A stretch of 64,000 nucleotides of DNA from an uncultured Pseudomonadota bacterium (lineage in GTDB: Bacteria; Pseudomonadota; Gammaproteobacteria; Steroidobacterales; Steroidobacteraceae). The notes under the pieces were generated by a model. The model did no database searches and was not told the origin of the DNA. It was given only the letters and a program-made list of their open reading frames with translations. The stretch spans positions 174,023 to 238,022 of the forward strand of contig CAWCGL010000009.1 in NCBI GenBank assembly GCA_963794975.1. The letters are read 5' to 3'. Positions 6,451 to 61,595 of the stretch are shown here, piece by piece (positions within the stretch are counted from its first letter, which is position 1; each line of letters begins with the position of its first letter). Made by a program: the position numbers and the translations under genes.

Positions 6451-8307
6451 GTGCGCGCCCTGTCAGGCTTGCCTTCAGTTAGGTTCGCTCACCCGTACGG
6501 TCAGCACTTGGCACGCATCCCCCAGCACTTCATCGATGAGCTGATCGCCCGCGCCGACATCGTGGAGATCATCGGCGGGCGCGTGCAGCTGAAGAAGTCC
6601 GGCCGCGAGTACCGCGCCTGCTGCCCGTTCCACAACGAGAAGACGCCCTCGTTCTGGGTGAGCCCCGACAAGCAGTTCTATCACTGCTTCGGCTGCGGCG
6701 CGCACGGCACGGCGCTCGGCTTCCTCATGGAGCACGACCACATGGCCTTCCCGGAGGCGGTGGAGGAGCTGGCCACGCGCCTGGGCCTCGAGGTGCCGCA
6801 CGAGGGCGGCGCGGCCGGTCCCAAGCGCGCCGATGAGCCGCTGTACGAGCTGATGAAGAGTGTCGCCCGCTACTACGCGGAAGCCCTGGCGAAGGAGCCG
6901 CGCGCCCGCGACTACGTGGTGCGCCGCGGGCTCAGCCCCGAGACCTGCGAGCGCTTCGGCATCGGCTACGCGCCGAACTCCTGGAACGAGCTGCTGCGCC
7001 GCTTCGGCGGCAACGAGGCCGGCCGCAAGGCCCTGAGCGAGGCGGGCATGATCATCGAGCGCGAACGCGGCCAGGTGCGCGAGGGCGACCGCCACTACGA
7101 CCGCTTCCGCGACCGCCTCATGTTCCCGATCCGCGATGCCCGCGGGCGGGTGATCGCCTTCGGCGGGCGCATCATCGATGCCGGCGAGCCGAAGTACCTC
7201 AATTCCCCCGAGACCGTGCTGTTCCACAAGGGCCGCGAGCTGTACGGCCTGTACGAGACGCGCCGCGCGCGCACCAACCTTTCGCGCCTCCTGATCGTCG
7301 AAGGCTACATGGACACGGTGCGCCTGCATCAGGCCGGGATCGACTACGCGGTGGCCACCCTAGGCACCGCCACGACCCCGGAGCACCTGCGGCGCCTGTT
7401 CCGCCTGGTGCCCTCGGTGGTGTTCGCCTTCGACGGCGACCGCGCCGGCCGCGCGGCCGCCTGGCGCGCGCTGCAGCAGGCGCTGCCGGAGGTGCGCGAG
7501 GGCCGCGAGATCCGCTTCCTGTTCCTGCCCGACGGGCACGACCCGGACACGCTGGTGGGCGAGGAAGGCAAGGACGCCTTCGAGGCGCGGCTGCACGATG
7601 CGCTGCCGCTCTCGGAGTACCTGGTGCGCGAGCTGTCGCAGCAGAGCGAGCTCGGGCATGCCGACGGGCGCGCGCGCTTTGCCGAGCACGCGCGGCCGCT
7701 GTTCTTGAAGGTGCCCGAGGGGGTCTACCGGGAACTGTTGCTCGACCGACTGGCCGAGGTCGTAGGCCTCGGGCCACAGCGGCTGCGCGAACTGTGGATG
7801 CCCGGCGCCGCGCCGCCGGGCAACGCGGAGCCGCGCGCGCCCGCCGCGCGCCCGCGCAGCGCCACCGCCGCCGGCCGCGGCAGCCTGGTGCGCCAGGCGA
7901 TCGTGCGCCTGCTGCACTACCCGGCGATTGCCGCCGAGGTGAGCACGACGGAGCGCGCCGGGCTGGATGCCAGCGACGAGCCCGGGGTCGCCCTGCTGCG
8001 CGAGCTGATCGATGACCTGCGCGAGCGCCCGGCAACCATTGCCGCCCAGGTCGTGGAGCGCTGGAGCGACCGCGAGGGCGGGGAGTGGCTCAAGAAACTC
8101 CTCGAGCGCGAGGAGGTCATCACCTCCGCGGGGGTGGCGGCCGCGGAGCTGCGCGGGGCCCTGGGCCGACTGGCGGACCTGGCGGGGGCCCGGCGCCTGG
8201 AGGCGCTGGAGGCCAAAAGCCGTTCCGGGAGCCTGGAAGAGGCAGAACTTCAGGAATTTCAGGCACTTATTGTTAAACTAGGTCACCGCCGCACGGGTGG
8301 AGGCTAA
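6451..8307 (+). CDS. dnaG: DNA primase
   Basis: It has the zinc-binding motif CCPFHNEKTPSFWVSPDKQFYHCFGCGAHG and the TOPRIM region LLIVEGYMDTV...FDGDRAGRAAAWRA. An alternative in-frame TTG start at 6508 would give the usual (M)ARIPQHFIDEL N-terminus. Confidence 0.92.
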   Translation: MRALSGLPSVRFAHPYGQHLARIPQHFIDELIARADIVEIIGGRVQLKKSGREYRACCPFHNEKTPSFWVSPDKQFYHCFGCGAHGTALGFLMEHDHMAFPEAVEELATRLGLEVPHEGGAAGPKRADEPLYELMKSVARYYAEALAKEPRARDYVVRRGLSPETCERFGIGYAPNSWNELLRRFGGNEAGRKALSEAGMIIERERGQVREGDRHYDRFRDRLMFPIRDARGRVIAFGGRIIDAGEPKYLNSPETVLFHKGRELYGLYETRRARTNLSRLLIVEGYMDTVRLHQAGIDYAVATLGTATTPEHLRRLFRLVPSVVFAFDGDRAGRAAAWRALQQALPEVREGREIRFLFLPDGHDPDTLVGEEGKDAFEARLHDALPLSEYLVRELSQQSELGHADGRARFAEHARPLFLKVPEGVYRELLLDRLAEVVGLGPQRLRELWMPGAAPPGNAEPRAPAARPRSATAAGRGSLVRQAIVRLLHYPAIAAEVSTTERAGLDASDEPGVALLRELIDDLRERPATIAAQVVERWSDREGGEWLKKLLEREEVITSAGVAAAELRGALGRLADLAGARRLEALEAKSRSGSLEEAELQEFQALIVKLGHRRTGGG

Positions 8308-24607: not shown

Positions 24608-25300
24608 TCAGTGCTCGCCCGGCAGCCAGCGCACGTCCTGCTGCATCTCCTGCGCGAGCGGCGCGACATCGGTGCGGGTGCGCTCGAGCACCGCGATGCC
24701 GCCGCCACCCTGTGCCGGCACGACGATCCCGCTCATGCCGCCCTCGTGGAAGGTGCGCCGCGCGGTCACGCTCTCGTGACGCAGCAGCAGCACCGTGGCC
24801 GGGCCCTGCGAGGTCTGCAGCACCAGGTGCGGTACGTAGTGGCCGTGGAAGAAGCAGCTCTGCGCGTACACGATTTTGTCGGAGGACAGGTCGAGAGCGA
24901 CGCCGGCCCCGTTCAGCGCGGCGGCCAGCTCCGCCGCATCGACGTGGCGCTCGCTCAGCCAGCTCTCCGGCTCGCCCTTGACGTGGTTCACGAGGTCGCG
25001 AGCCAGGGTGTCACTCGGGCGCAGCACCCACGTGCCCAGCACCACCGCGCTCGCCACCAGGATGCTCGCCGCCAGGGCCCACTGCCGCCACAGCGGCTTC
25101 GCCCGCGGCCGCGGCACCAGCGTGGTGACCGGGGCGCTGAGCGGGGGCTCCTGCAGCACGCGCTGGATGCGTCCCTCGAGGCTGAGCATCTCGGTGCGGA
25201 ACGTAGCGCAGGCATGGCATTCGCTGAGGTGCTCCTGCAGCTCCGCCGGTGCGGACGCCGGGTCAGCGCCGATCAGCAGGCGTGCGTGCTCGCAGTTCAC
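24608..25300 (-). CDS. anti-sigma factor (zinc-binding HxxxCxxC, DUF3379-like), single TM
   Basis: MNCEHARLLIGADP..LQEHLSECHAC carries the ZAS motif. A TM segment follows (WALAASILVASAVVLGTWVL). A 4-nt overlap links it to the upstream ECF sigma gene. Confidence 0.75.
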   Translation of the reverse strand: MNCEHARLLIGADPASAPAELQEHLSECHACATFRTEMLSLEGRIQRVLQEPPLSAPVTTLVPRPRAKPLWRQWALAASILVASAVVLGTWVLRPSDTLARDLVNHVKGEPESWLSERHVDAAELAAALNGAGVALDLSSDKIVYAQSCFFHGHYVPHLVLQTSQGPATVLLLRHESVTARRTFHEGGMSGIVVPAQGGGGIAVLERTRTDVAPLAQEMQQDVRWLPGEH

Positions 25301-25908
25301 GCCGCCCCCCCTGCGTCTGCCACGTCCGGCGCGGCGCTCATGCCGCAGATCACCCGCAGCTTGTTGCGCGCCCGGAACAGCCGCGTGAGCACGGCCGTGG
25401 AGGACAGCGCCAGTTCCTGCGCGATCTCCTCGGTCGTGAAGCCGCCGATCACCTGCAGGACCAGCGGCTCTCGGTATTCGATGGGTAACTTCATGATCGC
25501 GTGACGCAGGGCAAACAACTCACTATCCGGTTCCGCGGCCCCCGGGCTGGCCTGGATCTCGGCAACTTCCTCCAGCGGCACCATTTCCAGGCGCTTGCGC
25601 TCGTACAGGCGGGCGTGCTCGCGGCGCACGATCGTCAGCAACCAGGGACGGGCGGCGCTGGGATCCTTCAGCGCCTCGCGCGAACGCCATGCCCGCAGCA
25701 GCGATTCCTGCACCACGTCCTCCGCGATAGCCCGGTCACGCGACAGCCACTGGGCGAACCGCAGCAGGTCCGGGCGCATGGATTCGAACAGCCTGACGAT
25801 AGGCTCACCCGGCGCCGCTCCAGGCAGCCGGTCGCTGATAGATAAGACCGGGGATTCGGGCGGAGAATTGCGCATAGCTTGTAGCTGCAGCGGATTATAC
25901 GCATCCAT
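25297..25908 (-). CDS. ECF-type RNA polymerase sigma factor
   Basis: It has region 2 (LLRFAQWLSRDRAIAEDVVQESLLRAWR) and region 4 (PIEYREPLVLQVIGGFTTEEIAQELALSSTAVLTRLFRARNKLR). Confidence 0.88.
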   Translation of the reverse strand: MDAYNPLQLQAMRNSPPESPVLSISDRLPGAAPGEPIVRLFESMRPDLLRFAQWLSRDRAIAEDVVQESLLRAWRSREALKDPSAARPWLLTIVRREHARLYERKRLEMVPLEEVAEIQASPGAAEPDSELFALRHAIMKLPIEYREPLVLQVIGGFTTEEIAQELALSSTAVLTRLFRARNKLRVICGMSAAPDVADAGGAA

Positions 25909-25986
25909 GATCGCCGTCCCGGCAATATCGCGTCAGACTGACCGGTCTTCTCGCCCAACTGTGACATCACCGCGACAGGAGTAACC

Positions 25987-26469
25987 GTGAGTGCGCTAAT
26001 CCAATGGCTGATCGAATGGCCCCGCCGCGTTGCCGGGCATATCGCCTGGCTCGCCCCCCTGTTTGCCCGCATCACCGTCGGCTGGGTGTTCCTGTGGAGC
26101 GGCTGGGGCAAGCTGCAGAACCTGCCCCTCGTGACCGAGAACTTCATCGGCTGGGGCATCCCGGCGCCGCACCTGCTCGCGCCCTTCGTCTCCGGGGTGG
26201 AGTTCTTCGGCGGCCTGTTCCTGCTGCTGGGCCTGCTGACGCGCATCTCCGCCGCGGCCCTCGCGGTCACCATGATCGTGGCCATCAAGTCGGCCAAGTG
26301 GGCCGACGTCGACTCGCTCGAGACGCTGCTCGGCTTCGACGAGTTCGAGTACCTGGCGCTGTTCCTGTGGCTCGCCATTGCCGGCGCCGGTGCGGTGTCG
26401 GTCGATCACTTCCTCGAGCGCTGGTACCAGCGCACCCGGCCGGCGGCGCCGGGAACGGCTCTGCACTGA
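25987..26469 (+). CDS. DoxX-family membrane protein
   Basis: 160 aa with four TM segments. RITVGWVFLWSGWGKL and FVSGVEFFGGLFLLLGLLTR are DoxX signatures. The gene is divergent from the ECF sigma gene. Confidence 0.85.
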   Translation: MSALIQWLIEWPRRVAGHIAWLAPLFARITVGWVFLWSGWGKLQNLPLVTENFIGWGIPAPHLLAPFVSGVEFFGGLFLLLGLLTRISAAALAVTMIVAIKSAKWADVDSLETLLGFDEFEYLALFLWLAIAGAGAVSVDHFLERWYQRTRPAAPGTALH

Positions 26470-26561
26470 AGGCCAGGCGGACGCAACAAATGCGCGGTGC
26501 TGCCGGTCTCCTGCAGTACCGGGCCTTACCCCGGCAATACCCAACAACGAGGAATGCACCC

Positions 26562-26813
26562 ATGCGATTGAAAAACTCAGGTCTCGCGGCCGCCACGGCC
26601 GCCGCCATGCTGTTCAGCACGGCCATGGTCGGCACTGCCGTCGCCGGCACCGGCACGAACGTGCAGTGCGCGGGCGTCAACTCCTGCAAGGGGCAGTCGG
26701 CGTGCAAGAGCGCCAACAACGCCTGCAAGGGCCAGAACTCCTGCAAGGGCAAGGGCTTCCTGGAGATGAGCAAGGCGGACTGCGACGCTGCCAAGGCGAA
26801 GGCGGCGAAGTAA
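26562..26813 (+). CDS. bufferin-type RiPP precursor paralog (Sec signal peptide + 6-Cys core), orphan copy
   Basis: 83 aa. The signal peptide MRLKNSGLAAATAAAMLFSTAMVGTAVA is followed by the core GTGTNVQCAGVNSCKGQSACKSANNACKGQNSCKGKGFLEMSKADCDAAKAKAAK. A GAGGAA Shine-Dalgarno is present. The product is near-identical to that of the gene at 50072..50320. Confidence 0.85.
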   Translation: MRLKNSGLAAATAAAMLFSTAMVGTAVAGTGTNVQCAGVNSCKGQSACKSANNACKGQNSCKGKGFLEMSKADCDAAKAKAAK

Positions 26814-34770: not shown

Positions 34771-35871
34771 CTAGGCCAGTGCGCGCACGCCCTGGTACCC
34801 CAGGTACAGCCCGACCAGCAGGATCAGCACGCCGGAGAAATACGGGGCGCGCCGCGCGAGCGCGGTGAAGCCGCCCATGTGCTTCGCCAGGTGCCGCACC
34901 CCGAGCGCCGCCAGCGCCCCGGAGGCCACCATGGTCACGGCGAGACCCAGGCTGAAGCCGAGCACCAGGGTCACCCCGAGGGCGAACTTCTTCAGCTGCA
35001 GGCACAGGAGCAGCACGGTCACGGCCGCCGGGCAGGGCAGCAGGCCGCCGGTCAGGCCGAACATCACGATCTGCCCGGTCGTGACCTCGCGGTTGGTGAA
35101 GCGGCGGCGGATATCATTGGCGTGCGCCAGCTCGTGCGGATCCTGGTAGCCGGGCGCGCTGACATCGAGGGCGTCGTAGTCCTTGATCGCGTGGCGGTGC
35201 GCCCCTTCCACGAACTCCAGGTCGTAGTCGTGCATGTGGTGGTCGTGGCCGAGCTTCAGGCGCGCCACGAACTCGTGCGGCGTGGCGACCGTCTGGCTCG
35301 ACACCAGGTGGTCGGACTCGCGCCGGAACGTGAACACCTCGCGGCTGCCGTCGGCGCGCTCGGTCTCCACCTGCACCTGCTCGGCCGAGCACAGCGGGCC
35401 GGCCTCGGCGTGCAGGCAGAAATGCGCCGCCCCGCCGTCGGATGACAGCGCCAGCAGGAACACGCCGTGGCCGGTGTCGACGCGGCGCGTGCCGTCGTGG
35501 TGATGATGGTCCTCGTGGGCATGCCGGGCCGCCGACGCACGCGAGGCGCGCCACAGCATCCACGCGGCAACCGCCACGATGATCACCGCCGAGGCGAGCT
35601 GCAGGTACGGCTCGGTGGCCTCGCTGTTGAAGCGGCTGCCGAAGTACAGGCCGGACAGACCGATCGCCCACACGATGGCCGTGTGCGAGACGGTCGCCGC
35701 CAGCCCCAGCAGGACCGCCTGTGCCAGCGTGCCGCGCACGGCGATGATGAACGCCGCCATCATCGTCTTCGAGTGCCCCGGCTCCAGGCCATGGAGCGCG
35801 CCGAGCAGCATGGCGCTGGGCACGAACAGCCAGGAGTTGCCCTGCTGCAGCAGCGTGCTGAAGGAAGTCAT
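34771..35871 (-). CDS. rcnA: nickel/cobalt efflux transporter, RcnA/NicO family, with a long His-rich and structured central loop
   Basis: Signature [19 protein letters not shown] near the N-terminus, second half GLLPCPAAV. Central loop [12 protein letters not shown].. and [19 protein letters not shown]. Confidence 0.8.
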
Positions 35872-45700: not shown

Positions 45701-46867
45701 TCAGCCGAGCGCTTCCTTCAGTTCGGCGAGCAGGTCGGCGATGTCCTCCACGCCGACCGAGAGCCGGATGAGCCCGTCGCTGATGCCGAGCGAGGCGCGC
45801 ATCGAGGGCGGCAGGGATGCGTGGGTCATGATCGCCGGGTGCTCGATGAGGCTTTCCACGCCGCCCAGGCTCTCGGCCAGCGAGAACAGGTGGCAGCGCT
45901 CCAGCGTGCGGCGTGCCGCGTCGAGCCCGCCGCGCAGCACCGCGGTGACGATGCCGCCGTAGCCGTTCGCCATCTGCCGCCGGGCGAGCGCGTGCTGCGG
46001 GTGGCTGGCGAGCCCGGGGTACAGCACGCGTTCGACGGCCGGGTGCTGCTCGAGGAACTGCGCCACCGCGAGCCCGTTGGCGCAGTGCCGTTCCATGCGC
46101 AGCGCGAGGGTCTTGATGCCGCGCAGTGTGAGGAAGGAGTCGAATGGTCCGGGCACCGCGCCGAGCGCGTTCTGCAGGTAGGCCAGGCGCTCGGTGAGTT
46201 CCTTGTCCGCGCGCACGACGGCCGCGCCACCGATCGCATCCGAGTGCCCGTTCAGGTACTTGGTCGTCGAGTGCATGACGACGTCGAAGCCGTGCTCGAG
46301 CGGGCGCTGCAGGTAGGGGGTAGCGAAGGTATTGTCACAGACGCTCAGGATGCCGCGGCTGCGCGCCAGCTTTGCCACCGCGCTCAGGTCGACGAGCTTC
46401 AGCAGCGGGTTGGTCGGGGTCTCGACCCACAGCAGGCGCGTCTCGGGACGCAGCGTCTTCTCGAGTGCGGCCACGTCCGAGAGGTCCACGAAGGAGACGC
46501 TGTGCCCGGCGGAGCGCTTGCGCACGTTCTCCAGCAACCGGTAGCTGCCTCCGTACAGGTCGTTCATGGCGATGATGTGCGAGCCGGCATCCAGCAGTTC
46601 CATCAGCGTGGCGGTCGCGGCCATCCCCGAGGCGAAGGCGAACCCGGCCGCCCCGCCCTCGAGGTTCGCCAGTGCCGCCTGCAGCGCGTCGCGCGTCGGG
46701 TTGTGCGTGCGCGAGTATTCGTAGCCCTTGTGCACTCCCGGGCTCGACTGCACGTAGGTCGAGGTGGCGTAGATCGGCGGCATGATCGCGCCGGTGAGCG
46801 GGTCGGGGCGCTGGCCGCCGTGGATGACGCGCGTGCCGAAGCGCTGCCCGGAAGTCTCGTCACTCAT
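45701..46867 (-). CDS. cystathionine gamma-lyase/synthase family PLP enzyme
   Basis: 388 aa from MSDETSGQRFGTRVIHGG. The PLP-lysine context is HSTTKYLNGHSD, and ...ESLGGVESL is also present. The track's 444-aa ORF is a shadow extension. Confidence 0.9.
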   Translation of the reverse strand: MSDETSGQRFGTRVIHGGQRPDPLTGAIMPPIYATSTYVQSSPGVHKGYEYSRTHNPTRDALQAALANLEGGAAGFAFASGMAATATLMELLDAGSHIIAMNDLYGGSYRLLENVRKRSAGHSVSFVDLSDVAALEKTLRPETRLLWVETPTNPLLKLVDLSAVAKLARSRGILSVCDNTFATPYLQRPLEHGFDVVMHSTTKYLNGHSDAIGGAAVVRADKELTERLAYLQNALGAVPGPFDSFLTLRGIKTLALRMERHCANGLAVAQFLEQHPAVERVLYPGLASHPQHALARRQMANGYGGIVTAVLRGGLDAARRTLERCHLFSLAESLGGVESLIEHPAIMTHASLPPSMRASLGISDGLIRLSVGVEDIADLLAELKEALG

Positions 46868-46907
46868 GCGAAGGGCACCTCTGGTGCTGCTGGGGTGGGG
46901 AAACGCC

Positions 46908-48281
46908 TCATTGCCGGCGACGCAGCCAGTTGAGCAGGTCAATGCGCGTGATGAGTCCCTGGAACTCGTTGCCGTGCATGACGATGGCGACCATGCCGCG
47001 CTTGAAGATATCCATGAGCTGCGTGATCGGCGCATCCGCGGCGATGGTCACCAGGTGGCTCGTCATCGCGCGCGTGACCGGCTCGTTGAAGTGCGCGGGA
47101 TTGGCAACGACCTCCATGAGGATGTCCTCCTCGTCGACGATGCCGACGATGTGGCCATCCTCCAGCACCGGCACCTGCGAGACGTCGTAAAGCTTCATGC
47201 GCCGGTAGGCGGCCATCACCGCTTCGGTAGAATTGACCGTCACCGCGGCGCGCTCGGTGTGCCGGCGGGCGATCAGGTCGCGCAGGTCGCCGAAGTGCGC
47301 GCGCTCGATGAAGCCCTGGTCGAGCATCCAGAAGTCGTTGTAGACCTTGGAGAGGTACTTGTTGCCGCTGTCGCACACGAAGCTGACGACTCGCTTGGCG
47401 CTCTGCTGTGCGCGGCAGTAGCGCAGCGCCGCAGCGAGCAGCGTGCCGGTGGAGGTGCCGGCGATGATGCCCTCGCGGCTTAACAGCTCCCGGCAGGTGC
47501 GGAAGGCTTCTGCATCGGGAATGGTGTAGGCGCTGCTCACCCGCGAGAAGTCCCCGACCGGGGGTACCGAGTCCCCGCCGATCCCCTCCACCAGCCACGG
47601 CGTCATCGTCTGCGGCAGCTTGCCGGTGGTCGCATAGGTGGCAAGGCCCGAGCCGGCCGGGTCGGCCAGCACCAGCTGCACCGCAGGTGCGGTGCGCGCA
47701 AAGAAGTGCGTCAGTCCGGCGAGCGTGCCGCCGGTGCCGGCGCCGCACACGACCGCATCGAGGCGGTGCCCCATCTGTTCCCAGATCTCCGGCGCGGTGG
47801 TCTCCTCGTGTGCCTGGGCGTTGGCCGGGTTGCCGAACTGGTTGACGAAGTAGGCGCCGGGAATCTCCTGCGCCAGGCGCTCGGCGACATCGCGGTAGTA
47901 CTCCGGGTGCCCCTTGCTCACGTCCGAGCGCGTCATCATCACCTCCGCGCCCATCGCCTTGAGGTGGAAGATCTTCTCCTGGCTCATCTTGTCCGGGATC
48001 ACCAGCAGCAGGCGGTAGCCCTTCTGCGCGGCCACCAGGGCCAGGCCCAGGCCGGTATTGCCGGCGGTCGCCTCCACCAGCGTGCCGCCGGGCTTCAGTC
48101 TCCCGGAGCGCTCGGCGGCCTCGATCAGGTACAGCCCCACGCGATCCTTGATCGAGCCACCCGGGTTCTGGTTCTCGAGCTTGAGGAACAGTTCGCAGGG
48201 GCCGGTATCCAGGTGCCGCACCGCCATGAGCGGTGTGTTGCCGATCATCTCCAGGACATTGGCGTAGGTGGCGAGCGGCAT
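46908..48281 (-). CDS. cystathionine beta-synthase (PLP domain + tandem CBS domains)
   Basis: 457 aa from MPLATYANVLEMIGNTPL. It has LENQNPGGSIKDRVG (PLP Lys) and TAGNTGLGLA, plus a C-terminal CBS pair (..YDVSQVPVLEDGHIVGIVDEEDIL..). Confidence 0.9.
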   Translation of the reverse strand: MPLATYANVLEMIGNTPLMAVRHLDTGPCELFLKLENQNPGGSIKDRVGLYLIEAAERSGRLKPGGTLVEATAGNTGLGLALVAAQKGYRLLLVIPDKMSQEKIFHLKAMGAEVMMTRSDVSKGHPEYYRDVAERLAQEIPGAYFVNQFGNPANAQAHEETTAPEIWEQMGHRLDAVVCGAGTGGTLAGLTHFFARTAPAVQLVLADPAGSGLATYATTGKLPQTMTPWLVEGIGGDSVPPVGDFSRVSSAYTIPDAEAFRTCRELLSREGIIAGTSTGTLLAAALRYCRAQQSAKRVVSFVCDSGNKYLSKVYNDFWMLDQGFIERAHFGDLRDLIARRHTERAAVTVNSTEAVMAAYRRMKLYDVSQVPVLEDGHIVGIVDEEDILMEVVANPAHFNEPVTRAMTSHLVTIAADAPITQLMDIFKRGMVAIVMHGNEFQGLITRIDLLNWLRRRQ

Positions 48282-48360
48282 CGGGCGGCTTTTTTTGCGC
48301 AGAGTCGGGCCGCAATTGTACGCTGGCGTGCCCGCGGATGTTGGCGCGGCGGCCGTCGAC

Positions 48361-49137
48361 TCAGTCCGCCCGGGTGATGAGTCCGGAGGCGACCCAGCCG
48401 CGCAGCAGCGTCGCTGCCTGCAGTGGGGCCTGCGCCTCGCCGAGTTCCTCACACAGCAGCGTGCACAGTTCACCGAAGGGCCAGCCGCGCCGCGCCGCAT
48501 CCAGCACGGTGCACTCAGTCTTCGGCAGCGAGCGGAAGTAAGTCGTCAGCTCCTGCCGCCAGGCCAGCCACGGCTGCGCCTGCTGAGTGAAGCTCACCGC
48601 GGGCGGGTCACGCTCCTCGGTGACCGCCTGCCAGATCTGCGGCGCGTTCCAGTGCAGCGCCAGGCGCTGCACGCTCGGGTGAAAGCCAAAGCGCAGCTGC
48701 GCCCACTGCTGCGGTTCCACGCGTGCGAGTGCCTCGTGCGTCACCGGCTCGGCGTCGGCAGCATCGAAGACCTGGCCGAGGGTCCACTCCCAGCCGGCCA
48801 GCTCCGCGAGCACCGGCGCGCTGGCGTACGGCTCGGTGCCCTTGAGGAACTCGGCCAGGTGATCCCCGTAGTAGCGGATCGAGAAGTACGGCGAGTCGTA
48901 GGCGCGCACGTAGGCACTGGCCAGCTGCTGGAAGTCCGCCTCGCCCAGCAGCTGCGCCAGCGCCGGGAAGTTGCTGGCCATGGCCTCGGCGAGGCGGCTG
49001 CCATAGCCGCCGCCGTAGATCGCCAGCCGCGTCGCCACCGGCACCCGCGTGGTGCCGAGCACGTGAGCCTCGATCGCGCGCTCGCCCTGCAGCAGGTAGG
49101 CCTGAAAATCCCCCTGCACCTGCGCCAGCCGGGTCAC
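48361..49137 (-). CDS. DUF2063-family partner protein of the MNIO enzyme (BufC-like)
   Basis: 258 aa. FQAYLL.G......[24 protein letters not shown] is a typical DUF2063 N-terminus. An ATGA overlap links it to the DUF692 gene. Confidence 0.8.
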
Positions 49138-50018
49138 GGCGCCGCCCCTGCGCGGTGCGGCCGGCCCACGTTGACGGTGCCGGCGCGCTGCGTAACGGCC
49201 AGTACCTGCGTGCTGAGCGCGCGCGCCTGCTCAAGTTCGGCGACCAGCTCGGCCAGCGGCGGGATGTTGTCGTCGCGCTCGATCATGGTCGCCACCGGCC
49301 CGCAGTGGCGCAGAGCGGCTGCGTACAGCTGCCACACCGGATCGGGCACCGGATGGTCATGGGTGTCGATCAAATAGTCGCCGTGGTTCTCGTGGCCGGC
49401 GAGATGGATCTGCTGCACCCGCTCGGCGGGCATCGCCGCCAGGTAGGTGAGCGCGTCGAACTCGTGGTTGACGGAGCTTACGTAGATGTTGTTCACGTCC
49501 AGCAGGATCAGGCAGTCCGCGCGCACGGCCACTTCGCGCAGGAAATCCCACTCGGTCAGCTGTGACTGGCTGAAGCCCACGTAACTGGAGACGTTCTCCA
49601 TGAGGATGCGCCGGCCGAGCACGTCCTGTACCTGGCGGATGCGCGCCACGACGTGCGCGAGCGCCTCTTCCGTATAGGGCAGCGGCAGCAGGTCGTGCAT
49701 GTTGCGCCCGGCCACGCCGGTCCAGCACAGGTGGTCCGAAATCCACGCCGGCTCCAGGCGCTGCGCGAGCGCCTTCACCTGGCGCAGGTATTCAAGATCC
49801 AGCGACGCGGTGCTGCCGATGGACAGCGACACCCCGTGCATGACCAGGGGATAGCGCTCGCGGAAGCGCATCAGGTAGGACAGCGGCTTGCCGCCCGGGA
49901 CCAGGTAGTTCTCGGTGAGCACCTCGAACCAGTCGACGGGCGGACGGTCGGCGAGGATCGCCTCGTAATGATCGACCCTCAGGCCCAGGCCAAAGCCGAG
50001 GGTGGGGCTGGTGAGCAT
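49134..50018 (-). CDS. DUF692 multinuclear non-heme iron oxidase (MNIO; BufB/MbnB-like)
   Basis: 294 aa. [56 protein letters not shown] is the DUF692 TIM-barrel metal-ligand pattern. Confidence 0.9.
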
Positions 50019-50034
50019 CTAAGAGGAGTAAACG

Positions 50035-50065
50035 GCGGACCGGGCGCCGCAGGCGCCCGGTCCGC
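50035..50065 (-). promoter_or_regulatory. perfect 14-bp stem-loop between precursor gene and MNIO gene (candidate attenuator/processing hairpin)
   Basis: On the plus strand this reads GCGGACCGGGCGCC-gca-GGCGCCCGGTCCGC. On the mRNA strand it is followed by CGUUU. It lies in the 53-nt precursor-to-MNIO spacer. Confidence 0.5.
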
Positions 50066-50071
50066 AACAGA

Positions 50072-50320
50072 TCACTTCGCCTTGGCTTTGGCGGCGTCGC
50101 AATCCGCCTTGCTCATCTCCACGAATCCCTTGCCCTTGCAGGAATTCTGGCCCTTGCAGGCATTGTTGGCACTCTTGCACGCGGACTGTCCCTTGCAGGA
50201 ATTCACGCCCGAGCAGTGCACCTTGGCTTCGTCTGCGCTGGCGGTGCTGATCGCTGCGGTGGAGAACATCATCGCGGCGGCCGCGGCCAGGGCAACACTG
50301 GGAAGCATTCTGGAACTCAT
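50072..50320 (-). CDS. bufferin-type RiPP precursor (Sec signal peptide + 6-Cys core)
   Basis: 82 aa. MSSRMLPSVALAAAAAMMFSTAAISTASA is followed by DEAKVHCSGVNSCKGQSACKSANNACKGQNSCKGKGFVEMSKADCDAAKAKAK. A GAGGAG Shine-Dalgarno lies 7 nt upstream of the ATG at 50320. It is the first gene of the precursor-DUF692-DUF2063 operon. Confidence 0.85.
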   Translation of the reverse strand: MSSRMLPSVALAAAAAMMFSTAAISTASADEAKVHCSGVNSCKGQSACKSANNACKGQNSCKGKGFVEMSKADCDAAKAKAK

Positions 50321-50639
50321 TCGCAGTCTCCTCATACGGGATGGTGGAACGCCGCGGATTGTACGCCTCGGGTGCGTGAAGTAGTGCCTGTGACGCGCGG
50401 GCCACGTAAGTGCCTCGGCGCCCACGCAAAACCCCACGCCGCCGGGGCGCTTGAGTGCGGCCGTACAGTAGACCGGGGGGACGGGTACTGGATTGCAGAA
50501 CCGTAAAAAGAACCCCATAAGTGGGTTGCCGGGCCTGCACCGGGGATGCCGCACCGCACGCTGGACCGACGTATAATTTGCAGGCCTGCGCCGACCCGGC
50601 ACAGGCGAGTTCCACTGTCCTCACACACACGGTGACGGA

Positions 50640-56353
<5,714 letters not shown>

Positions 56354-56357
<4 letters not shown>

Positions 56358-57347: not shown

Positions 57348-59417
57348 ATGACGCATCGCCCCGCTCGCGCGCGGATCCTCTCCTGCCTGACCTGGCTGTC
57401 CTGCCTGGCGCTGCCGGCACTGGCCCTGGCGGCCGCAACGCCGCCTGCTCCGGTGCACGCCTGGGAAACCGGCGGCACGCCCGCCTCCCTGGAGGCCTGG
57501 GTAAACCAGCACCTGTCCGCCTCCGATGCGACCGTCAAGCGCCTGCTCGCCGTCAAGGGTGCGCGCACCGTCGACAATACGCTGCAGCCCTACGACGATG
57601 CCTTCGGCGCGCTCATCGATGCACAGAGCCAGTCGTCGCTGCTCTACGGCGTCGGCTCCACCAAGGAACTGCGCGACAAGGCGCAGGCCCTCACGCAGAC
57701 CGTGGCCGCGGCCCTGGCCGCGCTCAGCCTGAACCAGGCGGTCTACCGGGCGCTCACGGCGATCCCCAGTCCGGCCGATCCGGCCGCGCGCCACTACCTC
57801 GAGCGCACCCTGCTCGAGTACCGCCTGGCCGGAGTCGACCGGGACGACGCCACGCGCGCGAAGATCAAGGCGCTGCAGGACAAGATCACCGAGCGCGGCC
57901 TGGCCTTCGAGCGCACCGTGCACGATGACCGGCGCACCGTGGTCGTCGACAAGGCGCTGCTGGACGGGCTGCCGGCGGACTACCTCGCCTCGCACCCGGC
58001 CGATGCCGACGGCCACGTCAAGATCACCACCGACTACCCGGACACGCGCCCGGCGCTGAAGTTCGGCAACAACCAGCAGCTGCGCCACCAGGTGTTCATG
58101 TCCGCGCGCCAGGTCGGCTGGCCGGCCAACACCGAGATCCTGCGCAGCCTGCTCAGCGCGCGCCGCGAGCTGGCGCAGCTGCTCGGCTACCAGACCTGGG
58201 CGGACTTTGCGATGGCCGATCAGATGATGGGCTCGCCGGCGAAACTCGCGGAGTTCGTGCGTCAGGTCGACGAGGCCTCGCGTGAACCCGGCGCCCGCGA
58301 GGATGCGGCCCTGCTGGCCTTCGTGAAGTCGCGCGACCCGTCGGTGCAGAAGATCTCGGCGGCGGACCTGAGCTACTGGCGCGAACAGTACCGGCGCGCC
58401 AAATTCAACTTTGATTCGCAGAGCGTGCGGCCCTACTTCCCGTACGACCAGGTAGAAAAGGGCGTGATCGCCACGGCCTCCAAGCTGTTCCGCGTGCAGA
58501 TCAACCCGGTGGCGGGCGTGAACACCTGGAATCCCTCCGTGACCACCTACGATGTCTTCGACGGCGCCACCAAGCTCGGGCGCATCTACCTCGACATGCA
58601 TCCGCGCGAGGGCAAGGACAAGTGGTTCTCGACGACCTCGGTCACCAGCGGTGCCCGCGGGCGGCAGCTGCCCGATGGCGCCCTGATCTGCAACTTCCCG
58701 GGCGGCGTCGCCGGAGACCCCGGGCTGATGCAGTACGGTGACGTCGTGGTCTTCCTGCACGAGTTCGGCCACCTCATGCACCACCTGATAGGCAGCCAGA
58801 ACCGCTTCGCCGGCGCCGGCGCCTTCTTCGTCGAGGGTGACTTCGTCGAGGCGCCCTCGCAGATGCTCGAGGAGTTCTTCCACGACTACGGGATCATCAC
58901 CACCTTCGCGCGCCACTACCAGAGCGGCGAGGTACTGCCGCGGGAGCTGTACGAGCGCATGGTGCGGGCGGATGCCTACGGGCGCGCGGCGGATGAGCAG
59001 TTCCAGCTGCTGGCCACCGCGGTGTCGCTGGACTTCCATACCGTAGACCCGGCGACGGCGGACTTCGATGCGTTGTACCGCAAGGCCTTCGACCGCTACA
59101 GCACCGCCGAGTTTTTCCCCGGCGACCACTTCTGGACCTCGTACACGCACCTGAACGGCTACAGCTCCAACTACTACACCTACGTGCTCGACAAGGTGAT
59201 CGCGCTGGATTTCTTCGCGCAGTTCGACCCGCAGGACCTGCTCGGCGGCCCGACCGGGATGCGCTATCGCCAGACCGTGCTTGCCCCGGGCGCCACCAAG
59301 CCGGCCGCGCAGCTGGTGCACGACTTCCTGGGCCGCGACATGAACCTGGAGGCCTACAAGCGCTGGATGCTCGCCGAGTTCGACGCGCCGGCTACGACTT
59401 CTTCACCCGCTCACTGA
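57348..59417 (+). CDS. M3-family zinc metallopeptidase (oligopeptidase/dipeptidyl carboxypeptidase-like), secreted
   Basis: It has the signal peptide MTHRPARARILSCLTWLSCLALPALALA, the HEXXH motif VVFLHEFGHLMHH and a downstream FVEAPSQMLEEF. Confidence 0.9.
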   Translation: MTHRPARARILSCLTWLSCLALPALALAAATPPAPVHAWETGGTPASLEAWVNQHLSASDATVKRLLAVKGARTVDNTLQPYDDAFGALIDAQSQSSLLYGVGSTKELRDKAQALTQTVAAALAALSLNQAVYRALTAIPSPADPAARHYLERTLLEYRLAGVDRDDATRAKIKALQDKITERGLAFERTVHDDRRTVVVDKALLDGLPADYLASHPADADGHVKITTDYPDTRPALKFGNNQQLRHQVFMSARQVGWPANTEILRSLLSARRELAQLLGYQTWADFAMADQMMGSPAKLAEFVRQVDEASREPGAREDAALLAFVKSRDPSVQKISAADLSYWREQYRRAKFNFDSQSVRPYFPYDQVEKGVIATASKLFRVQINPVAGVNTWNPSVTTYDVFDGATKLGRIYLDMHPREGKDKWFSTTSVTSGARGRQLPDGALICNFPGGVAGDPGLMQYGDVVVFLHEFGHLMHHLIGSQNRFAGAGAFFVEGDFVEAPSQMLEEFFHDYGIITTFARHYQSGEVLPRELYERMVRADAYGRAADEQFQLLATAVSLDFHTVDPATADFDALYRKAFDRYSTAEFFPGDHFWTSYTHLNGYSSNYYTYVLDKVIALDFFAQFDPQDLLGGPTGMRYRQTVLAPGATKPAAQLVHDFLGRDMNLEAYKRWMLAEFDAPATTSSPAH

Positions 59418-61302
59418 GGCGCTCGAGCAGGCGCGCGAACGGGGAGCCCTTCTGGACCTCGACGCGCAGGTGACGCACGCCGCTCTCATTGAGCGTCTCG
59501 CCATTGCCGTTGTCTATCGCCAGCTGGCCGGCGCCGAGGATCTCGAGCGTTTCCTCGAGCGACTGCGCGCCGCGCGCCTCGCCGGCGCCCACCTTGCCCG
59601 CGCCGCGCGCGCGCGGCTTGGGGGTCGGGACTGGCCTGGCGGCAGGCGCGGCGGGGGCGGCGGCCTTGCGGCCGACCGCAACCTTGGGGACGGGCCGGCC
59701 GGGAATCTTGCGGGTGGCCGGATCGCTTAACGGCTTGGCGGCCACGGGCTGCTGGGTACGCGGTGCCATGCGCTTGAGCGCATCGGCCGCCGCGGCGGCG
59801 ATCGCCGCGGCGTCATCGATCAGCTTGAACTCATCGATGCGCTCGGCCGGCTGGGCCGGCGCGCCGCCCAGGGTCGCTGCCTGCTTGTCCTGCTCGGTGG
59901 CGCGCGCCTTTTCCTGGGCGCTGACCGGGACCACCGCGACGGCTGCGAACTCCGAGCGTACGTAGTGGGCCACCTGCTTGGCCGAGATCGCGTCGCTGAA
60001 GAATCCCAGCCGCAGTCCATACCACTTGCGCCCATCACGGCTACCCTCGACGGTGTAGAGCGTGTAGGCACTGAAGATGGCCAGCGGCGGGACCTTGTCC
60101 AGCGCCACCGCCTGCACCGACCACTGCAGCTGCACGGCAAACAGCACGGCCGCGTTGCTGACGACGGCTTCCTTCAGCGCCTCGCGCGTGCCGGTGTCAT
60201 CGGGCTTGAGCAGCGGGATGGCGCCGTGCGCCGGTTCCTGCGCCTGGGCCTCCGCGCCCTCGGGGCGGCGCACTTCCAGCAGCTTCAGCACCTGGGTATC
60301 GCTCAGGGCCGCCTTCGCCGGCGGCGGCGCGGGGGTGTGCGGCGGCGGCGGCGCGCGCATCAGGCGCGTCTCGCCGGTGGCGCTGGCATCGCCGAGCGCC
60401 TTGAGTACCTCGCGCACGTTCGAGTCGCCGAAGACACCGGTGGCGCCGGATGGCTTCTGCTGCGCGGCGGCCGGTGCCGGCTCGGCGGCGAGGCTGAGCG
60501 TGCCGGGCGCGGCGGGCGCAGTCACGACCGGCGCGCTCGGGCGATTGGGTGCGGCAGATGCAGGCGCCGCCGGGATGACACGGGCCGGGGCGGGCGCCGG
60601 TGCGGTGGGCGGGCGGGCGCTCATCGCCGGGGGTGCAGCGGGCGCTGGCGGCGCGGCGGGCTTGCGTGCCGCGGGCAGCGGCTGCGTCGGTGCGGCGGCG
60701 GCGGGCTTGCGTGCGGCGGGCGCTTGCGGTGGCGCAGCGTTAGCGGGCTTGCGCACGACGGGTGCCTGGGGAGCCGGTGCGCGGGGGGCGGGCGCGGCCT
60801 GCAGAACCGGCAGCAGCACCGGAATCGGATCGGGCACCAGCGGCTTGGGAGGCGGCGCGGGTGCGAAGGGATGTGGGGCGGCCTCCGCGGCCGCCGGCGG
60901 CGGAGCGGGAGGGGCCGGGCGCTGCTGCTGCGGACCTGCGGCGTGCTGCGCCTGCGCGGCCGCGGCCGCGGCCGCGCGTTCGCGCAGCTTGCGCCCGGGA
61001 GCCTCACCGGCCCAGGCGCCCGGATAAATCTCGCGCACGAGATTCAGCCACTCCTCGGCTTCCGCGAGCGTGGCGAAATATCCCATGTGCAGCCGGAAAC
61101 GTTCACGGCCTTCCTCGAAGCGCCGGCTGACGAAGAACGTGAAGCGCTTGAGCTCGGGCAGGTCGGCCTGCGCGAGCGCCATCGGCGTGGTGGAGGAACA
61201 AAGGTTCAGCACGAATGGTCCCGTGCTGGCGGCCGGTGCGGTCGCATCGCCTGTGCCGAGCTCTGCGAGAGCGTCGGAAGCGAAGTTGGGCTTTGCAGTC
61301 AT
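59392..61302 (-). CDS. SPOR-domain protein with two SPOR-like domains separated by a long Pro/Ala-rich region
   Basis: Starts at MTAKPNF (ATG 61302). SPOR-like 1 is FVLNLCSSTTPMAL..RFRLHMGYFATLAEAEEWLNLVREIYPGAW. SPOR-like 2 is FAVQLQWS...WYGLRLGFFSDAISAKQVAHYVRSEFAAVAVVPVS. The linker of about 300 aa carries ARKPA repeats. Confidence 0.8.
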   Translation of the reverse strand: MTAKPNFASDALAELGTGDATAPAASTGPFVLNLCSSTTPMALAQADLPELKRFTFFVSRRFEEGRERFRLHMGYFATLAEAEEWLNLVREIYPGAWAGEAPGRKLRERAAAAAAAQAQHAAGPQQQRPAPPAPPPAAAEAAPHPFAPAPPPKPLVPDPIPVLLPVLQAAPAPRAPAPQAPVVRKPANAAPPQAPAARKPAAAAPTQPLPAARKPAAPPAPAAPPAMSARPPTAPAPAPARVIPAAPASAAPNRPSAPVVTAPAAPGTLSLAAEPAPAAAQQKPSGATGVFGDSNVREVLKALGDASATGETRLMRAPPPPHTPAPPPAKAALSDTQVLKLLEVRRPEGAEAQAQEPAHGAIPLLKPDDTGTREALKEAVVSNAAVLFAVQLQWSVQAVALDKVPPLAIFSAYTLYTVEGSRDGRKWYGLRLGFFSDAISAKQVAHYVRSEFAAVAVVPVSAQEKARATEQDKQAATLGGAPAQPAERIDEFKLIDDAAAIAAAAADALKRMAPRTQQPVAAKPLSDPATRKIPGRPVPKVAVGRKAAAPAAPAARPVPTPKPRARGAGKVGAGEARGAQSLEETLEILGAGQLAIDNGNGETLNESGVRHLRVEVQKGSPFARLLERLSERVKKS

Positions 61303-61595
61303 AACTTCCCCGGAAAACGAAACCTTGCGCGGCCGCGATCCTCGGTGCGACGTTTCCTGGTGACGGGGATGGGAGTGCGAGCGAACGCGCCGGTTGCGCG
61401 ATCGTGGCAGCCCCGCCGTCATAGGAAACGTCCTTTAGACCGGTGGCTTTGCGTCCCCGTCTTTCGACGGGTTTGCCCTTATCACTGAGTTCTTAGTGTC
61501 AAAGCGTCGCGGATTGGAGTCAAGCAACGAAATGTGTCGTGACTCTCAAGTGCTGTGACATATGCGCAACTATTGTGTCCCGGCCACTTTATGTT

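Follow-up and report, generated by a model that had tools for sequence, protein, structure and literature searches.

The locus analysed here raises the question of which class of RiPP, if any, is encoded by three co-oriented genes of an uncultured soil bacterium of the Steroidobacteraceae, and what the product might be used for. Inspection of the sequence and the open reading frames of the window (the whole analysed stretch of 64,000 nucleotides) located these genes at 48361-50320 on the minus strand, exactly where the original prediction had placed three tightly linked genes of a bufferin-type operon:

50072..50320, minus strand: bufA2, 82-aa bufferin-2 precursor (NF050166 match, six conserved Cys)
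49134..50018, minus strand: bufB, MNIO (DUF692) maturase, 294 aa (NF050167 and PF05114)
48361..49137, minus strand: bufC, DUF2063 partner, 258 aa, with a predicted C-terminal RRE-like domain (PF09836 and AlphaFold2/Foldseek)

With a probability of roughly 85%, these genes form a canonical RiPP operon for a bufferin-2 (Buf2; 'Cys-Lys captophorin'). About 60 of 80 genomes, which belong to many lineages of the Pseudomonadota, have the order bufA2-bufB-bufC. The operon is flanked by a divergent uvrA-like gene upstream and by genes for a cystathionine beta-synthase (CBS) and a Cys/Met-metabolism PLP enzyme (CGL) downstream. Profile searches with the DUF692, DUF2063, DUF2282 and BufA models, which had been suggested as a check, yielded matches to NF050166, NF050167, PF05114 and PF09836 and none to DUF2282. 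The precursor and the DUF692 protein both score above the cut-offs of their NCBIfam equivalog models, which bears out the bufferin-type reading; judged by these scores, the precursor does not fail the bufferin models, nor is the DUF692 protein a non-RiPP MNIO. A second bufB or bufC gene was not found within the window. The bufferin family, whose secreted Cys-rich peptides are turned into copper binders by an iron enzyme, has already been described, and the locus is therefore ordinary. Bufferin-2 operons number in the thousands and are named by curated HMMs, and their chemistry and role in copper stress are published, so that the locus alone matters little; still, the proteins are listed as 'hypothetical' in records of soil MAGs, and this annotation can be corrected.

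The precursor gene and its product consist of the following elements:

50328..50333, minus strand: GAGGAG ribosome-binding site of bufA2, 7 nt before the ATG (AGGAGA invariant in 15 relatives)
50234-50320, minus strand: BufA2 signal peptide, Sec-type, 29 aa (MSSRMLPSVALAAAAAMMFSTAAISTASA), judged by inspection
50075-50233, minus strand: BufA2 core, Lys-rich, 53 aa, six Cys (from the sequence)

The position of this ribosome-binding site supports the start of bufA2 at 50320. BufA2 reached 90.9 bits with NF050166 (Cu_RiPP_BufA2; cut-off 60), covering model positions 2-77 of 79. In total, 2454 homologues were found, and most of the close ones likewise have 82 aa; a few homologues carry a precomputed DUF2282 match. 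In a Pfam search, BufA2 itself showed no match to DUF2282 (PF10048) at E <= 0.01, its sole match being a weak one to DUF7640, and it possesses six Cys residues versus four in DUF2282 precursors. Together with the NF050166 match, this agrees with the earlier assignment to the 6-Cys type rather than to classic DUF2282. A Sec signal peptide and a core of about 50 aa with a repeated CKGQxxCK pattern had also been anticipated: the motif occurs twice in the core, and by inspection the putative signal peptide comprises an n-region with a basic residue (R4), a hydrophobic stretch of 20 residues and a cleavage site between A-S-A and DE. Among 109 homologues, A27 and A29 of the cleavage site are conserved to 98-100% and the six Cys (core positions 7, 13, 19, 26, 32 and 45) to 99-100%, while the A-x-A motif and the four Cys-Lys (CK) dyads are invariant or nearly so. 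Inspection of the sequence revealed no EGKCG repeat, and the dyads are of the Cys-Lys rather than the Lys-Cys type. BufA2 had no match in a sequence search of the PDB. The AlphaFold2 model (32 homologues) had a pLDDT of 43.6, too low to judge the published beta-hairpin/helix fold or the disulfide, both of which are predicted for BufA2 from homology only.

BufB scored 394.5 bits with NF050167 (MNIO_BufB; cut-off 310) and matched PF05114 with E = 5.7e-116. The full metal-ligand pattern ascribed to this enzyme beforehand is present: in an alignment with VcMbnB, the nine iron ligands correspond to H61, H96, E141, D174, N177, H205, D218, H220 and E247 of BufB, and the catalytic Asp to D249. In the stretch IERD249-D250N, D250 is the Asp typical of Cys-Lys-type MNIOs and matches BufB2-Asp251 (PMC13097082). 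A different MNIO RiPP class (Buf1/DUF2282, EGKCG/oxazolin or methanobactin-like) or a non-RiPP DUF692 enzyme could be considered in view of the strong but sub-threshold score of BufB with the HvfB model (289.5 bits; cut-off 360) and of the few BufA2 homologues with a DUF2282 match. However, the precursor of the window has neither a DUF2282 match nor an EGKCG repeat and carries Cys-Lys instead of Lys-Cys dyads, and BufB is far below the cut-offs of the MbnB (TIGR04159; 62.6 bits, cut-off 325), ApyH and ChrH models, whereas the BufA2 and BufB equivalog models are passed. Such an alternative is extremely improbable and is already refuted by the HMM scores.

The gene bufC starts with GTG and shares 4 nt with the stop codon of bufB; an overlap of this length had been foreseen, but its letters are GTGA and not ATGA. 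Residues 6-98 of BufC correspond to PF09836 (DUF2063/HvfC_N; E = 1.1e-17), and the score with the HvfC model was 43.3 bits (cut-off 142). The AlphaFold2 model of BufC (pLDDT 86) matches the fold of an MNIO partner protein with an RRE-like domain: Foldseek retrieved TglI (8hi7_A, E = 9e-6) and NGO1945 (3dee, E = 1.6e-4) and, more weakly, the RRE proteins 6jx3 and 5v1v. Sequence and profile searches of the PDB gave nothing relevant and did not reach 3DEE; TglI and 3DEE were reached by the structure-based search alone.

Three elements in the noncoding DNA of the operon might be involved in its expression:

50035..50065, minus strand: 14-bp GC-rich hairpin between the bufA2 stop and the bufB start (folding energy, kept across taxa)
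50356..50366, minus strand: proximal housekeeping-type -10-like element GCGTACAATCC (TACAATC invariant in 15 relatives)
50470..50496, minus strand: distal ECF-type promoter-like motif GCAAT-N15-CCGGTCT, about 150 nt upstream of bufA2

The hairpin has a folding energy of -34.5 kcal/mol (z = -5.2), and none of 200 shuffled sequences folded as well. It occurs at the same place, with different sequences, in most of about 70 related loci examined, and several AT-rich relatives (e.g. L052, L055 and L071) show T-tails. As a candidate attenuator or stabiliser of the mRNA, the hairpin would determine the ratio of precursor to enzymes. A simple promoter/terminator scan missed this hairpin because its T-tail is weak, and the scan detected no sigma-70 consensus. 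Expression of bufABC is probably driven by two predicted promoters, the housekeeping-type TACAAT promoter and the distal ECF-type promoter. The distal motif is kept in relatives even where bufA2 is absent. A second copy of the proximal element precedes the CBS gene, and a similar one (TTACAATCCGCG) precedes a tRNA gene. A placement of TACAAT in conserved RNA hairpin loops was rejected, since the flanking inverted repeats shift register among relatives and the tRNA promoter has the same element. A LexA box, suggested by a TACTGTA half-site beside the divergent uvrA-like gene, was also rejected, since no ACAG half-site follows.

A second bufferin-related locus is present at 24.6-26.8 kb, 23.5 kb from bufABC. 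Its bufA2 paralog, doxX gene and sigma/anti-sigma module had been overlooked in the earlier reading:

24608..25300, minus strand: DUF3379 anti-sigma factor (PF11859, 75.7 bits)
25297..25875, minus strand: ECF sigma factor (Sigma70_r2 and Sigma70_r4_2; ORF readable from 25908)
25845..25871, minus strand: GCAAT-N15-CCGGTCT, codons 2-10 of the sigma ORF
25922..25948, plus strand: GCAAT-N15-CCGGTCT, 39 nt upstream of doxX (kept in most metagenome relatives)
25987..26469, plus strand: doxX (bufD-like), directly upstream of bufA2' (PF07681)
26483..26509, plus strand: GCAAC-N15-CCGGTCT, 53 nt upstream of bufA2' (in relatives G[CT][AG]A[CT]-N15-CCGGTCT)
26562..26813, plus strand: bufA2', orphan second BufA2 precursor, 83 aa (tblastn, NF050166)

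BufA2' (83.8 bits with NF050166; cut-off 60) shares 76% identity with BufA2 in tblastn, with a nearly identical Cys region and a different signal peptide, and the DNA of the two cores differs mostly at synonymous positions. The orphan precursor probably depends on the BufBC pair of the operon for maturation in trans. DoxX scored 76.7 bits with PF07681 and 64.9 bits with the HvfX model NF050144, which is below the cut-off of 80; the order doxX-bufA2' also occurs in relatives. The original prediction had pointed out that no DoxX gene lies in the operon. This is true but no peculiarity, as buf2ABC of Caulobacter also has none, and in the window doxX occurs elsewhere. The sigma factor scored 174.7 bits with NF009170 (PRK12517), and 53 of 57 relatives have kept its ATG at 25875. 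The anti-sigma factor possesses an H-x3-C-x2-C motif (zinc-finger-like, cytoplasmic) and one transmembrane helix; beyond the helix, in a part that is presumably periplasmic, C149, H154, H158 and H106 are conserved (55 distinct sequences, window included).

Both loci share the motif GCAAY-N15-CCGGTCT, which occurs four times in the window versus 0.02 expected copies, with all four copies confined to these two loci. Its conservation extends to 21 genome relatives and some 78 metagenome relatives. The copy in the sigma ORF keeps a constant distance in 78 of 81 relatives; its variability shows no codon periodicity, and a rare AAT codon is essentially fixed. Located inside the coding sequence as read from the conserved ATG, this copy does not fit a simple autoregulated promoter. 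A CusR/CopR box, considered as some bufA2' sites read TGACAAAT, was rejected for lack of an inverted repeat.

Tentatively, and at slightly less than even odds, these observations can be read as a split Buf2 system. The DUF3379/ECF sigma module would sense metal stress and, via the shared motif, induce doxX-bufA2' and bufABC and possibly the cysteine-synthesis genes, and one BufBC pair would mature two precursors with near-identical cores and different signal peptides. The copy within the first ten codons of the sigma gene would then be a dual-use (coding and regulatory) element. MNIO-centred surveys would not have joined the two halves of such a system, and a published survey reported no sigma genes in Buf2 clusters (PMC12452194). 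An ECF sigma factor with a DUF3379 anti-sigma factor represents a candidate type of regulator for Buf2, with a concrete promoter motif. Two precursors with one maturase, in addition to relatives that keep bufBC without an adjacent precursor, offer a handy system for studies of substrate recognition in trans.

For the function of the operon, chemistry, metal specificity and regulation are transferred by homology from Buf1 and Buf2 of Caulobacter vibrioides. The 82-aa precursor would be made in excess over the enzymes, as the strong hairpin after bufA2 probably attenuates read-through or stabilises a short transcript. In the cytoplasm, the iron enzyme BufB would act together with BufC, the RRE-like domain of which would recruit the substrate. 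With O2, both proteins would turn the four central Cys into 5-thiooxazoles by oxidation (-4 Da per residue), most probably the four that precede Lys (C42, C48, C55 and C61 of the precursor), with D249 of BufB as the putative catalytic base and D250 pairing with the substrate Lys. The peptide would then be exported by Sec and cut by signal peptidase after ASA29. Once in the periplasm, the peptide would acquire a disulfide between its outer Cys, C36 and C74, and the 53-aa product might buffer excess copper. The chemistry had previously been called uncharacterised; this applies to the present ortholog, but for Buf2 of Caulobacter vibrioides a characterisation by mass spectrometry, UV absorbance and genetics has been published (PMC11626156).

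Copper specificity is assigned by analogy, because no copper-resistance genes were found within about 18 kb of bufABC, where a gene for a NicO-type transporter lies 13 kb away. The same finding would suit a system that buffers another stress (Au, Cd, Hg, Zn, chromate or oxidants such as hypochlorite), with the thiooxazole peptide as a general soft-metal or redox buffer. Homologous operons of Caulobacter depend on sigma-F, their inducers being chromate, dichromate and cadmium (PMC3511200), mercury clusters contain fusions of MerC with Buf2 (PMC12452194), and hypochlorite defence in Azospira is under SigF/NrsF control (PMC4436054). The anti-sigma factor in the window is moreover a DUF3379 protein and not NrsF, so that the sensed signal may differ. 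Nevertheless, Cu induced a bufA2-lacZ fusion in Caulobacter while Fe, Zn and Mn did not, and buf2 protects against Cu (PMC11626156); the core peptide of the window is also close to the BufA2 equivalog model. A role in stress other than copper is rather improbable.

A further explanation concerns the two genes that follow bufC:

46908-48281, minus strand: cystathionine beta-synthase (CBS) gene, directly downstream of bufC (Pfam PALP+CBS)
45701-46867, minus strand: Cys/Met-metabolism PLP enzyme (CGL) gene, next after the CBS gene (Pfam Cys_Met_Meta_PP)

These genes may be co-transcribed with bufABC. It is unlikely, on the other hand, that bufA2-bufB-bufC-CBS-CGL form one transcription unit by which the metallophore is coupled to cysteine supply or to H2S via reverse transsulfuration. 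Such a unit would be consistent with the position of both genes downstream of bufC and in its orientation in about 28 Steroidobacteraceae-like genomes, including one (L022) in which the upstream uvrA-like gene has moved, with a bufC-CBS gap of 16-51 nt in several relatives, and with the 79-nt gap of the window, in which a scan detected no terminator-like site. However, the synteny with the cysteine-synthesis genes is specific to Steroidobacteraceae; it is absent from all more distant buf2 loci and may therefore be plain inherited gene order. In the window (48313-48323) and in most relatives, the CBS gene also has its own TACAAT -10-like element, while an ECF-like motif was not found upstream of it in a scan of the window, and in a published survey extra conserved genes occurred at very low frequency only (PMC12452194).

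The bufferin-2 operon proposed here corresponds most closely to buf2ABC of Caulobacter vibrioides (CCNA_02999-03001), which encodes bufferin 2 (Leprevost et al., PNAS 2024; PMC11626156). Both share the three-gene order without doxX, the Sec signal peptide (putative in BufA2 of the window), the six Cys, the MNIO with a DUF2063 partner and the NCBIfam equivalog models. In Caulobacter, the Buf2 product shows a mass shift of -18 Da (four times -4 Da plus one disulfide); the four central Cys are converted to 5-thiooxazoles, whereas Cys I and Cys VI are unmodified by this reaction and form the disulfide. The product absorbs at 305 nm, and the operon is induced by copper and its product protects against it (PMC11626156). 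The 5-thiooxazole in bufferins has been confirmed in the literature. The locus of the window differs in its core (53 aa versus 61 aa), in the span from Cys I to Cys VI (38 residues versus 26, Cys24-Cys50, in Caulobacter) and in its gammaproteobacterial host. In Caulobacter, buf2 is under the control of an ECF sigma factor whose gene lies elsewhere; for the operon of the window, control by the separate sigma locus is only a prediction, and the candidate regulator is paired with a DUF3379 anti-sigma factor instead of NrsF/DUF1109. Here doxX lies beside a second Buf2-type precursor, while the doxX-containing operon of Caulobacter is of the Buf1 type.

The captophorins, which include the Cys-Lys precursor group (Gadgil et al., ACS Chem Biol 2026; PMC13097082), are likewise encoded with an MNIO, a PME1 partner (DUF2063 plus RRE) and a Cys-rich precursor with several Cys-Lys dyads; in their Cys-Lys group, an Asp lies beside the catalytic Asp of the MNIO, as in D249-D250. 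The fontiphorin characterised in the same study belongs to the Lys-Cys/EGKCG group and, unlike BufB, its MNIO has a Phe at the specificity position; motifs of the Cys-Lys type were not processed by FonBC (PMC13097082). Buf1/DUF2282 bufferins and gig operons (buf1ABCD) resemble the present system in the enzyme pair, the thiooxazole chemistry and Sec export (both predicted here) and the association with doxX and sigma/anti-sigma genes. Their precursor, however, is a four-Cys DUF2282 protein, and doxX and sigma/NrsF genes lie in or beside the MNIO operon, whereas here doxX and the sigma gene accompany the orphan Buf2-type precursor. Methanobactin (MbnABC) differs in its MbnB, as the model score given above indicates, and in its partner protein, MbnC, in place of which the window encodes a DUF2063 protein. 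Oxazolin/HvfABC(X) of Haemophilus influenzae shares with the window a homologous MNIO (HvfB, 289.5 bits), a DUF2063 partner (HvfC, 43 bits) and a DoxX protein (HvfX, 64.9 bits), all of which score under the equivalog cut-offs here, and HvfA contains the EGKCG repeats that distinguish it from the Cys-Lys-type precursors BufA2.

Three tightly packed minus-strand genes occupy positions 48361-50320, as the original prediction had stated:

50072-50320, minus strand: bufA2, precursor gene, 82-aa ORF, first of the three
49134-50018, minus strand: bufB, MNIO (DUF692) enzyme gene, 294-aa ORF, separated from bufA2 by a 53-nt spacer
48361-49137, minus strand: bufC, DUF2063 partner gene, 258-aa ORF with GTG start

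The overlap of bufC with the bufB stop codon, read earlier as ATGA, is GTGA. A GAGGAG ribosome-binding site is located 7 nt upstream of the bufA2 ATG, and the majority of the close homologues of BufA2 likewise comprise 82 aa, which supports the start codon chosen originally. The N-terminus, judged by inspection, resembles a Sec-type signal (basic n-region, long Ala-rich hydrophobic stretch, A-S-A followed by DE). The predicted core of about 50 aa comprises 53 residues; it is rich in Lys, carries Cys at core positions 7, 13, 19, 26, 32 and 45, and contains the CKGQxxCK repeat twice. In 109 close homologues, little or no variation was seen at the six Cys, at the four Cys-Lys dyads or at the A-x-A site. 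BufA2 passed the curated NCBIfam equivalog BufA2 model (90.9 bits; cut-off 60), and no DUF2282 match was obtained in the profile search. One homologue (P0040) is an eight-Cys variant with a 13-residue insertion, ASNSCKGQSACKG, representing two extra CK repeats, and thus the central repeat region is able to expand.

BufB passed the equivalog MNIO_BufB model (394.5 bits; cut-off 310) and stayed under the cut-offs of the HvfB, ApyH, MbnB and ChrH models. The full metal-ligand pattern ascribed to the enzyme was recovered in an alignment to the Vibrio MbnB crystal structure, in which H61, H96, E141, D174, N177, H205, D218, H220 and E247 correspond to the nine published iron ligands and D249 to the proposed catalytic Asp. 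The directly following D250 corresponds to BufB2-Asp251, the Asp which MNIOs acting on Cys-Lys substrates are reported specifically to possess in place of Phe (PMC13097082). BufC carries an N-terminal DUF2063/HvfC_N domain. Sequence searches with BufC reached no solved structure; its AlphaFold2 model (pLDDT 86) matches TglI, an MNIO partner, and NGO1945 (3DEE), a DUF2063 protein, and more weakly the RRE domains of lasso-peptide and cyanobactin enzymes.

These results for precursor, enzyme and partner show every defining feature of a Buf2 cluster that is accessible from sequence. The HMM searches proposed with the original prediction matched bufferin-type models, and neither a failing precursor nor a non-RiPP MNIO was found. 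The locus is an ordinary representative of a published, HMM-defined family, and its interpretation as a bufferin-type operon of the 6-Cys rather than the DUF2282 type was correct.

Between bufA2 and bufB, a GC-rich hairpin of 14 bp was detected at 50035-50065 (free energy -34.5 kcal/mol, z = -5.2). Most of about 70 related loci possess a hairpin of different sequence at the equivalent position, to which several AT-rich relatives add a T-tail. It looks like a partial terminator or mRNA stabiliser, which would lift the precursor above the enzyme levels; no discussion of such a role was found in the publications consulted.

A tblastn paralog check of the window revealed a second BufA2 gene, bufA2', within a second bufferin-related module (24608-26813), 23.5 kb from the operon and with no MNIO gene of its own:

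24608-25300, divergent from doxX: DUF3379 anti-sigma factor
25297-25875/25908, divergent from doxX: ECF sigma factor
25987-26469, directly upstream of bufA2': doxX (PF07681, 76.7 bits; HvfX model 64.9 bits, under cut-off)
26562-26813, plus strand: bufA2'

BufA2' (83 aa) passes the BufA2 equivalog model (NF050166, 83.8 bits) and differs from BufA2 by two substitutions in the Cys region; its signal peptide is a different one. The core DNA differences are mostly synonymous, so both genes are under purifying selection. The anti-sigma factor combines an H-x3-C-x2-C motif with a single membrane helix; beyond this helix, in the inferred periplasmic part, C149, H154, H158 and H106 show at least 95% conservation. 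The gene order of the module is repeated in one related genome and in many soil-metagenome contigs.

An alignment of the window with 14 relatives (n=15) showed a conserved element, TGCAATCC-N13-CCGGTCTACTGTA, and a proximal TACAATC element upstream of bufA2. Both are retained upstream of bufB (about 7750-8000) in eight related loci (L003, L008, L011, L013, L016, L018, L019, L023) which keep bufBC and have no bufA2 adjoining or within +/-8 kb; the gene for the substrate presumably lies at another site in these genomes and may be a doxX-linked bufA2'. The 64-kb window holds four copies of the reduced form GCAAY-N15-CCGGTCT (0.02 expected; maximum one per shuffle), exclusively at bufferin-related genes:

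50470-50496, minus strand: upstream of bufA2
25922-25948, plus strand: 39 nt upstream of doxX
26483-26509, plus strand: 53 nt upstream of bufA2'
25845-25871, minus strand: sigma-gene strand, codons 2-10 of the sigma ORF from ATG 25875

Conservation of the sites extends to 21 genome relatives and to about 78 of 81 related loci. Two unrelated half-sites at fixed spacing with a variable spacer sequence fit an ECF-type -35/-10 promoter. Since the motif is found at both loci and conserved in relatives, a single regulon linking them is suggested. A split regulon consisting of the sigma/DUF3379 anti-sigma pair, doxX, the second precursor and the shared motif is given slightly less than an even chance (roughly 45%). 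Among 57 relatives, 53 share the sigma ATG at 25875, and a start there gives an N-terminus whose length agrees with the PRK12517 model; yet variability in the motif copy lying in this ORF lacks codon periodicity and the rare AAT codon is essentially fixed, so this copy may be under constraint as coding sequence and as DNA signal alike. Just after the motif upstream of bufA2', a short inverted repeat, CCGGGCC-(T)NAC-CCGG (26510-26545, plus strand), also present in relatives, lies in the presumed 5' UTR and may form a 5' stem-loop.

The nearest relatives are Steroidobacteraceae metagenome-assembled genomes. Proteins identical to BufA2, BufB and BufC are present in NCBI/ENA, where close BufA2 relatives are labelled 'hypothetical protein'. 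The precursor search returned 2454 homologues, and about 60 of 80 genomes fetched, including Legionella, Methylobacter, Sulfuricaulis, Dokdonella and Burkholderiales, show the order bufA2-bufB-bufC. The operon is flanked by the following genes:

50640-56357, plus strand: duplicated UvrA-like gene (1905 aa), upstream of and divergent from bufA2
45701-48281, minus strand: cystathionine beta-synthase (CBS) and Cys/Met PLP-enzyme (gamma-lyase-like) genes, downstream of bufC

The UvrA-like protein consists of two fused halves (internal repeats 32-42% identical), and its gene position is conserved in most Steroidobacteraceae relatives. The bufC-CBS-PLP-enzyme arrangement occurs in about 28 Steroidobacteraceae-like genomes and at no more distant buf2 locus. 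In the window, the bufC-CBS gap of 79 nt contains a TACAAT element of its own and shows no terminator-like site; in some relatives the gap spans only 16-51 nt. Considering the kept synteny, the short gaps and the lack of a terminator-like site, co-transcription of bufABC with the cysteine-synthesis genes is a weakly supported possibility.

No copper-resistance genes were found up to about 18 kb from the operon; the sole other metal-related gene seen in that range encodes a NicO-type (nickel/cobalt) transporter-like membrane protein with a DsbD_2-like region (34771-35871, minus strand). Elsewhere in the window, a tRNA gene (12204-12521, plus strand), preceded by TTACAATCCGCG, has its anticodon loop interrupted by a group I intron (Rfam RF00028, 62.2 bits, 12227-12475). 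ARAGORN detected it in intron mode only, and a loop reading CTCAT makes the tRNA-Gln call doubtful. A c-di-GMP-I-GGC riboswitch (RF03167, 61402-61486, minus strand; 75 bits, gathering score 59) overlaps the called start (GC3-based, 61422) of a 676-aa ORF (59392-61422) without Pfam domain.

The original prediction rightly found no doxX in the operon, but this is no peculiarity, because the Caulobacter vibrioides prototype buf2ABC also lacks it (PMC11626156). Nor is uncharacterised chemistry peculiar to this locus, since Buf2 chemistry has been published for that organism. Mature Caulobacter Buf2 shows -18 Da, with -4 Da at each of four central Cys, unmodified and probably disulfide-bonded Cys I and Cys VI, and absorbance near 305 nm; copper, but none of Fe, Zn and Mn, induces its bufA2, and buf2 protects the cells against copper (PMC11626156). 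For Buf1, BufB and BufC are necessary and sufficient for modification, DoxX and the signal peptide being dispensable (PMC11626156). The 5-thiooxazole assignment in bufferins has since been confirmed.

As BufB and BufC lack signal peptides, modification would occur in the cytoplasm, by analogy at the CK cysteines C42, C48, C55 and C61. The peptide would then be exported by Sec and cleaved by signal peptidase after residue 29, a periplasmic disulfide would form between C36 and C74, and the 53-aa product would bind excess copper. Control of buf1 and buf2 by SigF/NrsF in Caulobacter offers a parallel to the regulon, which is predicted here and involves a different anti-sigma family (DUF3379); a published survey recorded sigma/anti-sigma genes for Buf1 clusters and none for Buf2 clusters (PMC12452194). 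The whole MNIO-plus-DUF2063 group has now been named captophorins, and the BufA2 peptide fits their Cys-Lys precursor subgroup (PMC13097082).
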